DNA from: an uncultured Caulobacterales bacterium | GTDB lineage: Bacteria > Pseudomonadota > Alphaproteobacteria > Caulobacterales > Maricaulaceae | DNA length: 64,000 bases | NCBI GenBank assembly: GCA_938001915.1 | Contig: CALLBD010000006.1 | Span: forward strand, 7,963-71,962 | Direction: 5' to 3' | Shown here: positions 48,262 to 51,965 of the stretch, piece after piece | Layout: the number at the start of each line of letters is the position of its first letter | Numbering within the stretch: position 1 is the stretch's first letter | Notes under the pieces: model-generated | What the model saw: the letters and a program-made list of their open reading frames with translations, nothing else | Told to the model about the DNA's origin: nothing | The model's database searches: none | Program-made: the position numbers and the translations under genes

Positions 48262-49299
48262 ATGACTGATTTTCTAACCTTTGGCGAAATCATGCTGCGT
48301 CTTCGGACGAATGGCTATGAGCGCTTTTTCCAATCTCCGTCTTTCGAAGCCACATTTGGCGGCGGCGAAGCTAACGTTGCAGTCTCCCTATGTAACTATG
48401 GTCTAGACGCTGGCTTCATCTCGGCGCTGCCAGATAATGACATTGGTCAAAATGCAATTAACTGCTTGCGCGCGCTCGGCGTCAATACAGATAACGTAAA
48501 GCGTCAAGGCGACCGCGTTGGTATTTATTACCTCGAAACAGGTGCCAATCAGCGTCCGTCAAAAGTCATTTATGATCGCGCGGCTTCGTCAATCTGCGAA
48601 GCCAAGGTCGGTGATTTTGACTGGCCAACCATATTCAAAGGCGCAAAATGGCTCCACATCACAGGTATCACACCTGCGCTTTCCCAAGGGTCTGCTGACC
48701 TCAGCATGGAATGTGTTAAGGCCGCGCAAAAGGCGGGAGTCACCGTCTCTTGCGATTTTAACTTCCGTGGCAAGCTGTGGAAATATGGCAAGACAGCGGC
48801 AGAAGTTATGCAAGACCTCGTGAAATATGTCGACGTCGGTATTGCTAATGAGTAAGATTGCCAGAAGTCTCTCGGCATTTCCGTCGACGTCGATGTCGAA
48901 AGCGGATCAGGTCATTTGGACCTCAGCAAATATGAAGAACTCTCTCAGAAAGTCCTCGATATTTATCCGGGCATGTCGACAATTGCTATTACACTTCGCG
49001 CGGCTGTGAACGCCAATATCAATGGATGGTCGGCTTGTATGCGGGACCGTGAAAATGGGTTCCTGTCGTCTAAGAAATATGAGCTCACAGACATCGTTGA
49101 CCGCGTCGGCGGCGGCGACAGCTTCGCCTCTGCCTTTATCGCTGGGTTGAACCTTTATGAAGATCGTCAGCAAAGCCTCGAATTTGCTGTTGCAGGCTCT
49201 GCGCTCAAGCATTCCATCTTGGGTGACTTCAACCGCGTGAACCGCAAAGAAGTCGAAGCCCTCATGGGCGGCGACGGCTCTGGCCGCGTTCAGCGCTAA
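48262..49299 (+). pseudogene. kdgK: 2-keto-3-deoxygluconate kinase interrupted by an in-frame TAA at 48853-48855
   Basis: FGEIMLRL, GGEANVA, DRVGGGDSF; reads ANE*DCQKSLG where NEED is expected; both halves are in one frame. Confidence 0.9.
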
Positions 49300-49374: not shown

Positions 49375-50283
49375 TTATCTTTGAAACAGGCGGCCATCCA
49401 TAATTAATAGGCCCAACCCAATCAGGCCCATTCCAAAGGCTTGTATAAAGGTGAAACTTTCGCCCAAAATTGTGACGCCTAAAAATATAGCTGAGATGGG
49501 AATAAGAAATGTCACAAGCGCCGCATTGGTCGCGCCCGCAGAGGCGATAAGGCGGAAATAAACGACATAGGCGATGACCGTGCTAAAGAACGCGAGTCCT
49601 ATAGTTGCGCCTATGGCGTCCAGCGGGAGTGCTATCGGGAGCTGCGGCTTATCTATAATCAGCATGAGCGGGATGAGGATAAATGTCGCCATGGTAACTT
49701 GCCCTGTTGCCACGATGAGCGGCGAGATACCCCAGGCTTTGAACCGCCGAGAGAACACGGCCGCAAAGGCATAAGAGAGTGCCGCCCCCATAACCGCCAA
49801 TTGCCCCAGCATGGAGCCTGACAGGCCTTCAAAGGCTTCGGGGCCGATAAGGACTATTGTGCCTAATAACCCGAACAGCACGCCCAAGAGTTTCGGTTTC
49901 GTGATGCGTTCATCCATGAGGAGCGCGCCCGCGACCAAGACCGTAAAGAAAGGTGCCGTCGCATTGAAAATAGACGCCAGCCCAGAGTTAATTTGCGTTT
50001 GCCCCCAGGTAATTAAAGTGAAGGGAAGGGCATTATTTATCAGCCCCAAAATAAATAGTGCGCGCCAATGTTGAGCCGTTTTCGGGCGCGGAATTTTAAG
50101 CGCAAAAACAATCCCCCATAGCGCCACTGCGGCGAGGGCAACACGGCACGTGACAATGGTAAGCGGCCGAAGATGTTTGACCAAGATTTCAATAAAGAAA
50201 AACGACCCACCCCAAAGGATGGAAAGCCCGACCAACATAAGCATGTCGGAGAGTTTCATGTGCTGATGAATATTTGGGGTCAT
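49375..50283 (-). CDS. DMT/EamA family transporter
   Basis: WGGSF, ~10 hydrophobic segments, LGE motif. Confidence 0.92.
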   Translation of the reverse strand: MTPNIHQHMKLSDMLMLVGLSILWGGSFFFIEILVKHLRPLTIVTCRVALAAVALWGIVFALKIPRPKTAQHWRALFILGLINNALPFTLITWGQTQINSGLASIFNATAPFFTVLVAGALLMDERITKPKLLGVLFGLLGTIVLIGPEAFEGLSGSMLGQLAVMGAALSYAFAAVFSRRFKAWGISPLIVATGQVTMATFILIPLMLIIDKPQLPIALPLDAIGATIGLAFFSTVIAYVVYFRLIASAGATNAALVTFLIPISAIFLGVTILGESFTFIQAFGMGLIGLGLLIMDGRLFQR

Positions 50284-50387: not shown

Positions 50388-50464
50388 CGTCACCCTCGGG
50401 CACCGGCCCGAGGGTCCATTATGCTATTCAAAGATGGATCCTCGGTTCAAGACCGAGGATGACG
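50388..50464. repeat. alphaproteobacterial REP/RPE-like palindromic element
   Basis: GTCA-CCCTCGGG..CCCGAGGG-TCCA...TGGA-TCCTCGGT..ACCGAGGA-TGAC: two inverted hairpins inside a larger inverted repeat. Confidence 0.75.
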
Positions 50465-50593
50465 GATAGGAGATTGACGGTGGTATGAGTGAAGTGAGGC
50501 GCCATCCTCATTTCAACCCGCCCATATCCCCCATGAAACCGCCATTTCAAAAAACATACTCCTCACTTTCAAAAATCGTGTCATATTTAAATA

Positions 50594-51012
50594 GTTCCGC
50601 TGGACATGGACAGGTTAGCGCTTTCTGACTGGTCTGGGGGACGATGGGCCTGAGCGTCTGGGATTTAGTCCCCAGAGTGTGCCGGGGCTTTTACATCGAG
50701 AGGCGACCGTTTTGTCTTAACCGGGGCCGTCAGAACCGTCAAAAGATGGGGCCAGTTGGATGTGGTAGGAAACGCAGCTGATTGGCACGGGAGAAACTCC
50801 TTACCAGAGTTTAGCCTGTTGTGGCGTGCATGACCGGAAGGCATGACTGCGGGACCCCCGCCCGGTGTATCTACAACCATCGCTGCGCGGCGTCTGCTTC
50901 GTAAACACACTAATATATATTTGGCAGCCATCGAGGTTGCCGCCGCGCGGGCAGTCCTAAATGCCTAAGAGTTTCGAAGACTGGCGGCCCGAGTTGAAAA
51001 CAGGTTTTCAAC
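50594..51012 (+). ncRNA. candidate large structured non-coding RNA (~400 nt), family not recognised
   Basis: No credible ORF; GC-rich relative to flanks; more than 10 helices by eye with G-U pairs on the + strand; 5'/3' closing stem. Confidence 0.65.
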
Positions 51013-51141
51013 GGAGGTTGTGAGCGATGACGCTTGGGTAAATGAATTTCAAGCAGTGGGAATAATTATATAAGTACTATTGATTGCTCTGAGCTTTCAA
51101 TCATTTAGAAGTGTTTTGAATATGAGGTTGGTAGGAAAAAA

Positions 51142-51723
51142 GTGAATCCTGACGAAAACAAAAACTTAGAGACTGAAATTCGAGATCAGCAAGAAATAGC
51201 TTTACGCGCTCTTGGTTTATATGTCGTGTGGTGCATTGCACATAATTACGATGAACGAAAAAGATATGTCACCTGGATTGATAACAATAAATTCGAGGGT
51301 CTATTCTCAAAAGATGAAGTTGCATTTATGGCTGCCGATCCTGCCCCAATGCAACAGATTATAAACATTAGCTGGCATTGCGAACGTTTAATAATTTTAC
51401 TTTGGTGTCTGGGTTTAATCGACGGCCTGCCTGCAGCAGACACTCAATGTGAAACGAGTATATTTTTAGAATTAATTCCGCCTTTGAATGAAAACTTCAT
51501 TGTTGATTTTTTATCAAAGGTTGAGCTTCGATCTGAAGAAGATTTATGGGCATTAGAGGAAACTATCACACAGCAGCACTGGAAACTTCGGAACGCGAAA
51601 ATTAAGAATCAAACCATCGATGAACCTATCGACATTGAAATAGTGCAAGAGCGACATCATGCAATCAACTGGGTACTAAGGTATTGTAGGCTTGGTTGGG
51701 ATGACATGGTTTGTGACACATAG
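51142..51723 (+). CDS. DUF4272 domain protein (AT-rich)
   Basis: SWHCE...LLWCLG and C-terminal IVQERHHAINW....WDD...DT. Confidence 0.78.
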   Translation: MNPDENKNLETEIRDQQEIALRALGLYVVWCIAHNYDERKRYVTWIDNNKFEGLFSKDEVAFMAADPAPMQQIINISWHCERLIILLWCLGLIDGLPAADTQCETSIFLELIPPLNENFIVDFLSKVELRSEEDLWALEETITQQHWKLRNAKIKNQTIDEPIDIEIVQERHHAINWVLRYCRLGWDDMVCDT

Positions 51724-51771
51724 TGATTGGCCCAACTCTCCGAATAAAGACCATCAATGAATCGCAAACCT

Positions 51772-51840
51772 CTAACCCGCCAAACGTTCCTTCAACATCT
51801 CCAGTAACGCGGTATTCGTCACCAAAGGATCGCCGTCATA
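51772..51840 (-). pseudogene. diverged duplicate of the last 23 codons of suhB
   Basis: YDGDPLVTNTALLEMLKERLAG* vs suhB YDGDPLVTNAALLPMLKERLQG*; 53/69 nt identical by manual alignment. Confidence 0.88.
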
Positions 51841-51965
51841 GGCTGAGCCCCGTGTCTGAAAAGCCGCGTGCCGCGTGTGAGGAATTCATTAGACATGGGT
51901 GGAATAAGGCCTAGTTTAGGTTGCACACATAGAGTTACGCTCAAACGCAATGGGGATGTTCAGTC

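Follow-up and report, generated by a model that had tools for sequence, protein, structure and literature searches.

Locus and Extent of the Repeat Unit

The stretch of DNA analyzed here (the window; 64,000 nucleotides) comes from an uncultured Caulobacterales bacterium whose assembly (G000) amounts to 2.6 Mb in 120 contigs and is 89.7% complete. Between a gene for an EamA transporter (49375-50283, minus strand) and a gene for a DUF4272 protein (51142-51723, plus strand), the window holds a segment at 50594-51012 from which one large, highly structured non-coding RNA had been predicted by inspection of the sequence. We found that this segment is one of about 44 dispersed copies of a multicopy RNA gene family, and that the core fold of the RNA is kept by compensatory substitutions on the plus strand, both among these paralogs and across genera of the clade. 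The original prediction was right in proposing a real plus-strand structured RNA of no recognized family, but the standalone single gene did not survive the comparison, and the fold as it was drawn did so only in part.

Homology with the closest paralogs runs from about 50503 to about 51042, so the repeat unit (about 540 bp) is larger than the span first reported. The unit has three parts, all read on the plus strand. About 90 bp of conserved promoter-like DNA (50503-50593), recognized from the point where homology with the closest paralog begins and from position-specific conservation, precede a core RNA of 365 nt (50594-50958) that extends from GUUC to an invariant GUCC and is of the long subtype in this copy; the core was delimited with RNAalifold on 12 paralogs and with fold z-scores. 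A 3′ hairpin tail of about 85 nt (50959-51042) completes the unit and was defined with a hidden Markov model (HMM) of the tail and by its own folding energy (z = −3.1). The segment is indeed GC-rich (about 57% G+C) between AT-rich flanks (36–50%), and it contains no conserved open reading frame (ORF). An antisense ORF of 88 amino acids (50665-50931, minus strand) was rejected as a gene; stops, frameshifts, or a shifted length break it in 10 of the 12 paralogs, and it has no Pfam match.

Compensatory Change in the Core

We modeled the RNA comparatively, domain by domain, using three alignments: A1 (12 full-length paralogs), A2 (the 3′ core in 31 copies), and A3 (the 5′ domain in 40 copies, drawn from several genomes). 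From A2 we built R1, a covariance model of the 3′ core. The plus strand of the window copy folds with −165.5 kcal/mol, which is better than its dinucleotide shuffles (z = −2.35), whereas the minus strand does not stand out from them (z = −0.5). The RNAalifold consensus of A1 contains 101 pairs, 56 of which show at least one compensatory double change, in sixteen nested helices, some enclosing more than 200 nt. Many plus-strand pairs in all three alignments are G-U pairs; these would be A-C mismatches on the minus strand, so the pairing is strand-specific, as had been argued from the single copy.

The 5′ domain (50596-50641, plus strand) consists of a 10-bp stem (50596-605/50632-641) enclosing a hairpin (50613-618/50625-630), with the invariant CAUGGACAG between the two. 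In A3, 97.8% of the cells are paired, compared with 37–51% when the 3′ partner is slid, and 188 cells carry double changes, compared with 48 in shuffles; none of 500 shuffles reached any of these measures. The 3′ core (50883-50958, plus strand) gave a similar picture. Its 9-bp helix (50883-891/50942-950) encloses the invariant CGUAAA (50900-905), an AU-rich linker, and a hairpin (50923-929/50935-941), and these helices are followed by the invariant GGGCnGUCC. In A2, 96.8% of the cells are paired (about 40% when slid), and 79 cells have double changes (21.6 in shuffles).

A long-range helix on the plus strand, CGAUGG/CCAUCG (50642-647/50877-882), spans 50642-50882 and is 100% paired with two to three double changes per pair. 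According to the RNAalifold pair table it encloses the helices 50648-651/50685-688, 50654-663/50670-682, 50692-698/50863-869, 50702-705/50855-862, and 50707-710/50849-852. Also inside it is an optional central module (50721-50845, plus strand), identified from HMM coverage, short variants, and covariation in A1. Three hairpins of the module covary in A1: a GNRA-capped hairpin (50736-740/50745-749), a second hairpin (50751-759/50778-786 plus 50761-764/50773-776) with the invariant loop UGGUAGGAAAC, and a third (50787-791/50815-819 plus 50794-799/50807-812) whose loop contains an invariant ACCA.

The invariant nucleotides gather in junctions and loops: CAUGGACAG, UGAGC, UGUGCCGG, CGAGAG, UGGUAGGAAAC, ACCA, UGACCGGAAGG, ACUGCGGGACC, CGUAAA, CCAUCG, and GGGCnGUCC. 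Closure of the invariant GGAC (50608-611) with GUCC (50954-957) is possible, as is a loop-loop contact between UGGU and ACCA; the bases concerned never vary, so covariation cannot speak to either contact.

Compared with the 12 full-length paralogs, about half of the helices drawn in the original prediction are borne out. The inner part of its first hairpin (50613-618/50625-630), UCUGGG/CCCAGA (50657-662/50671-676), CCGUC/GAUGG (50736-740/50745-749), the long-range CGAUG/CAUCG (50642-646/50878-882), the 9-bp helix (50883-891/50942-950), and GGCAGCC/GGUUGCC (50923-929/50935-941) are each 93–100% paired and show double changes. CCGG/CCGG (50682-685/50721-724) is uninformative because it is invariant. 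The remaining drawn pairings fared poorly: AGGCGA/UUGUCU is 71% paired with no covariation, CAGUUG/CAGCUG is 50% paired in the drawn register, GGAG/CUCC 56%, GUUGUGG/CUACAAC 62%, and the proposed pseudoknot AGUGUG/CACACU 33%. GGAC/GUCU is displaced by the covarying 10-bp stem of the 5′ domain, and the proposed closing stem (50597-603/50981-987) draws on a stretch of the tail that is not conserved and instead forms local pairs in a long hairpin. What had to be given up is therefore the closing stem, the pseudoknot, and several registers, while the plus-strand structured RNA itself stands.

Modules Flanking the Core

In about 70 copies from several genomes, the same elements lie at a fixed distance upstream of the structural 5′ end. 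In the window copy (plus strand) these are an A-tract (50549-50555), a −35-like TCCTCA belonging to an ATCCnC motif (50560-50565), a 16-nt spacer, and a −10-like CATATT (50582-50587) that ends 6 nt before GUUC. The CATATT hexamer had already been singled out as promoter-like, and its position is conserved across these copies; the region also holds TTTCAA motifs. Judged from the sequence, the upstream element is laid out like a promoter whose −35 departs from the consensus, and it may well function as one.

The 3′ tail is an extended hairpin with an optional palindromic apical stem (50993-51012), which corresponds to the final hairpin of the original prediction, and it ends in GAGCG-AUGA-CGCUU. 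By distance count, 15 of the 21 matches to the tail HMM adjoin the end of a core, and three more lie at cores or at a core remnant that the end pattern had missed. We considered the tail as a separate REP-like repeat family and rejected this, since the tail is nearly always attached to a core. Contig C11 (G000:C11:122419-122684) has two tandem tail hairpins with no core RNA, the only such case found in G000. Copies that share about 91% identity elsewhere can have different tail types, which points to recombination between copies.

Copies, Subtypes, and Turnover

A BLAST search of the assembly with the element returned 27 matches at 65–92% identity, and iterated nhmmer searches extended these to 43–44 clustered loci, dispersed and all intergenic. 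Genomes that carry the family have 7 to 45 copies, so what was described as a standalone gene is a family member. Metagenome reads show the repeat as well: in four runs from two studies, read depth over the element is raised 5–20 fold and contigs break inside it. No joint skipping the element was found in the DNA contigs of the four runs. HMM coverage falls from about 40 to about 20 copies at the central module, which is present in about 20 of the 44 copies. Short variants lacking this module were aligned, and there is a further, more diverged subtype.

Several comparisons between genomes bear on the age of single copies. The copy on contig C70 of G000 and a copy in G181 sit between the same genes (67–89% amino-acid identity); they represent different subtypes, the core motifs are common to both, and the remaining intergenic DNA cannot be aligned. 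That the motifs are retained in otherwise unalignable DNA indicates that the RNA has been under selection at this one locus. Downstream of one conserved gene, a copy is present in G000, G045, and G044, and none is present in G016, G024, and G005. One filled and empty pair lies between the same two genes, the intergenic region measuring 536 nt in G044 and 180 nt in G016. In a tree of 5′ domains, copies of different genomes interleave, and at least eight label changes are needed for the G000 copies. There the window copy groups with those on C27 and C70 as a recent trio. Three copies in G000 are about 91% identical and have unrelated flanks.

Carriers Among Related Genomes

The 3′ core model R1 matched 35 of 151 genomes, in 8 of the 26 genera of the same family-level clade, with up to at least 29 copies per genome. 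Within one genus, the number ranged between species from none detected to at least 29. BLAST searches placed the element in 7 of the 24 other species of the window's genus, always in several copies, and a query with the short subtype added carriers. Because several genomes of the genus that are 99–100% complete have no match, the RNA is accessory, and it is patchy within genera.

Outside the clade, R1 gave a single marginal match in other families of the order and a single marginal match (E = 5e-4) in 150 other families sampled from the class. Sequence blocks of the element had been thought to recur in intergenic DNA of other Alphaproteobacteria; they do recur in related genomes, but confined to one family-level clade apart from these marginal matches. 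Among species-representative genomes, a pattern scan picked out metagenome-assembled genomes (MAGs) that bear the name Algimonas, Hellea, or Litorimonas, three names represented in the clade, or the label "Caulobacterales," together with chance matches in unrelated phyla. NCBI taxonomy places Algimonas in the Robiginitomaculaceae, order Maricaulales. Searches of viral contigs, phage records, and plasmids did not recover the element. By itself the 3′ pattern was too degenerate for scanning viral and metagenome contigs; filtering with the HMM left nine real metagenome loci, all marine, and no viral locus.

Genes Beside the Copies

The gene upstream of a copy is co-oriented with it in about 24 cases and opposite in about 13. 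Downstream, about 23 of 38 copies have a co-oriented gene within 30–340 nt and about 15 face a convergent gene. The 20 co-oriented downstream genes examined by function are unrelated (histidine kinase, amidohydrolase, aminotransferase, RF3, DnaB, malate dehydrogenase, UxuA, KduI, Tn3 transposase, and others). No recurrent protein gene lies within 3 kb on either side of the 44 loci in G000 or, for 19 loci in two complete genomes, within about 6 kb on either side; such "ORFs" as do recur near copies are artifacts inside the element itself.

A number of individual neighborhoods deserve mention. A full-length gene for a Tn3-family transposase (DDE_Tn3 plus DUF4158; G000:C50:31574-34399, locus L315) lies 173 nt downstream of another copy, and at this C50 locus the sequence after the conserved upstream gene varies between species. 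REP-like GC-rich palindromes, CCTCGG...CCGAGG, occur just upstream of the window element at 50394-50413 and 50440-50458, the second followed by ATGACGG. They occur about 21–27 times in the genome and also lie upstream of several other copies (on C18, C23, C70, C75, C49, C53, C118, and C16). These palindromes form a separate small repeat family and may mark a preferred neighborhood. The genes flanking two G000 copies, on C45 (3-268) and C49 (92005-92386), flank a single copy in G023 (L281) with their orientation changed, which suggests inversions or rearrangements with breakpoints at RNA elements.

The DUF4272 gene beside the window copy has almost no homologs within the genus. A homolog with 29% identity adjoins an RNA copy in G023, in divergent orientation (locus L275, G023:C1:47500-59600), and a DUF4272 query had no match in the other genomes of the genus that were searched, several of which carry the RNA. 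The association in G000 and G023 may be a coincidence, or the copies may mark landing sites of foreign DNA. Downstream of the window element (51000-51950), G+C falls to 36–40% across the DUF4272 gene and a 63-amino-acid ORF, beyond which a 785-amino-acid BACON-domain protein is encoded. On the other side of the EamA gene, a PfkB (KdgK-like) kinase gene is split: an ORF at 48262-48855 covers profile positions 1-191 of 302, and a second ORF follows at 48916-49299.

Comparison With Known RNAs

No model of Rfam 15 (4227 models) matched at its gathering score, either in the element or elsewhere in the whole window, or in 12 other copies, in agreement with the proposal of an unrecognized family. In E-value mode up to E = 10, four chance-level matches appeared around the element, the best with 17.5 bits against a threshold of 44. 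The element matched none of the models for HEARO (RF02033), introns, ribozymes, or riboswitches. It had been set apart from RNase P RNA and transfer-messenger RNA (tmRNA), rightly so: the genome encodes these on contigs C49 (301 bits) and C35 (248 bits), respectively. ARAGORN found no tRNA or tmRNA in the window. Our literature searches turned up no earlier description of the RNA.

Among other large bacterial RNAs, OLE, ROOL, GOLLD, and raiA resemble the element in measuring several hundred nt, in having a multi-domain covarying fold, in being restricted to lineages, and in having been found before their function. To our knowledge these classes are single-copy or prophage-linked, whereas the element occurs in 7 to 45 chromosomal copies per genome, has several subtypes and optional modules, and is missing from the phage and plasmid collections. 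The alpha-r/cuckoo small RNA families of Alphaproteobacteria are about 100–150 nt long, with simple hairpins and a terminator, and have a handful of copies. They too are paralogous RNA genes scattered through alphaproteobacterial intergenic regions (with independent transcription, which for the element is presumed), but the RNA described here is three to four times larger, with long-range helices and dozens of copies.

Proposed Role and Alternative Explanations

We consider it reasonably probable that the unit at about 50503-51042 belongs to an RNA family that appears not to have been described before, whose members are structured, transcribed independently, and active in trans, and which is carried on an accessory repeat present in different numbers in different species. 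Every copy would have a transcript of its own, driven by the conserved element upstream and beginning near 50594, and the RNA would fold into a compact multi-domain particle closed by helix 50642-647/50877-882 and perhaps also by GGAC/GUCC. It would act in trans and would probably do so as part of a ribonucleoprotein, the protein partner being encoded at another place in the genome. The gene itself would be an accessory, non-autonomous repeat that spreads by duplication and by recombination between copies, and selection would keep the fold since the activity of the RNA, or the repeat's own spread, needs it.

Several points weigh against this proposal. A scan of the element found neither a sigma-70 consensus promoter nor an intrinsic terminator, and no RNA-seq run was listed as containing the sequence. 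Independent transcription, with the start and 3′ end given to the transcript, is therefore inferred from the sequence, and so is expression as such. As for the mode of spread, no terminal inverted repeats were noticed, although no dedicated repeat search was made, and the filled and empty sites have diverged too far to reveal a target-site duplication. Finally, the interleaving tree indicates that much of the family is old, and it may be made up of paralogous genes that are stable, not of an element in active spread.

Among described RNAs, the element appears most like the HEARO RNAs (IscB omega-RNA, RF02033) in being multicopy, ornate, and patchy, though no HEARO model matches it. Both are large RNAs with dozens of dispersed intergenic copies, many with no adjacent ORF, unevenly distributed between close relatives and with a fold preserved by covariation. 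Together with the sharp boundaries at both ends of the unit and the selection on the fold in every copy, this behavior would suit the guide or cofactor of an unrecognized RNA-dependent mobile-element enzyme, comparable to IscB/TnpB omega-RNA or IS110 bridge RNA, in which case the copies would be orphans served in trans by a single-copy gene. The element differs from HEARO, however, in lacking an RF02033 match (or a match to any other Rfam family, even up to E = 10), a recurrent adjacent ORF, and a guide-like variable end; we saw no clearly hypervariable end segment, and the tail that follows GUCC is itself a conserved module. It also has its own conserved promoter-like DNA, and some copies are positionally conserved between species. 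We searched for the known enzymes in five RNA-carrying genomes that are 99–100% complete. TnpB (PF07282) was absent from these five carriers and from G000, with the control positive in 8 of 14 genomes, and the IS110 DEDD recombinase (PF01548) was absent from the five carriers, with the control positive in 6 of 14. Reverse transcriptase (PF00078) was absent from G000 and from four of the five carriers. The search for RRXRR (IscB, PF14239) had no match in the five carriers, but its control genomes were silent too, so it is uninformative on IscB. We regard a guide RNA of this kind as unlikely.

The element could also be a DNA-level repeat of the REP/BIME or MITE type, serving in protein binding, single-stranded DNA folding, termination, or mRNA stabilization, with no activity of the RNA as such. 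REP/BIME, RIME, and MITE repeats share several traits with the element: they are scattered through intergenic DNA, do not code for protein, occur in variable numbers, and cause short-read assemblies to break. Moreover, the arrangement of flanking genes around copies is not the same in G000 and G023, and true REP-like palindromes lie just upstream of several copies. The unit of about 540 bp is nonetheless neither a simple palindrome nor a pair of terminal inverted repeats (none of which were noticed, with the limit on that search given above). Sixteen nested helices, some with more than 200 nt enclosed, and invariant nucleotides at the junctions are what one expects of a folded RNA, not of a DNA repeat; G-U pairing is confined to one strand, and a position-conserved promoter-like element lies on that same strand. 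The mixed orientation relative to the upstream gene means in addition that the element is not a consistent 3′ untranslated region. On this evidence a DNA-level role is quite unlikely.

We give an equally low rating to a self-processing ribozyme whose cleavage, ligation, or circularization would serve its own propagation or maturation. Catalytic RNAs are typically of such a size, with invariant nucleotides concentrated in junctions and loops, long-range helices, and hairpins capped by GNRA loops, and many small ribozyme classes are also multicopy. Against this, no Rfam ribozyme model matched and we identified no conserved processing site. A cis-regulatory leader of each downstream gene, resembling a riboswitch or a T-box, is very unlikely: multicopy leaders such as T-boxes exist elsewhere and about 23 of the 38 copies do have a co-oriented gene close downstream, but about 15 face a convergent gene, the 20 co-oriented genes share no function, some pairs of copies share about 91% identity at loci that are unrelated, and the element has no terminator, anti-terminator, or element sequestering a ribosome-binding site. 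A purely DNA-level repeat and a cis-regulatory leader are thus both unlikely explanations.

Significance

Few bacterial RNAs are both large and intricately folded, and several, such as RNase P RNA and group II introns, have proved to be catalytic or central to core processes. The candidate RNA described here has unusually strong comparative support already from one genome. Some 44 paralogs, along with the copies in 8 genera, yield hundreds of compensatory changes. Its combination of features is unmatched by any described class: chromosomal copies number in the dozens and bring promoter-like DNA of their own, some structural modules are optional, and no protein gene is linked to the copies. Searches for the known RNA-guided transposon enzymes found none, save that the IscB search had no working control.

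As the chief alternative to our proposal, there is a small but real chance that the RNA is an essential part of an RNA-dependent propagation system not known so far, either as guide or scaffold for an unrecognized enzyme encoded by a single-copy gene or as a self-processing ribozyme. This would explain why dozens of copies with no protein gene keep an elaborate fold in genomes where we found no TnpB or IS110 and mostly no reverse transcriptase (RRXRR being undetected with its control silent).

For those who work with genomes of this clade, the repeat also accounts for many contig breaks in MAGs. The carriers are seaweed-associated, stalked marine bacteria. Isolates of Algimonas, Hellea, and Litorimonas exist and may include carriers. 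Once a carrier isolate is identified, the transcription, partners, and phenotype of the RNA would be directly testable.

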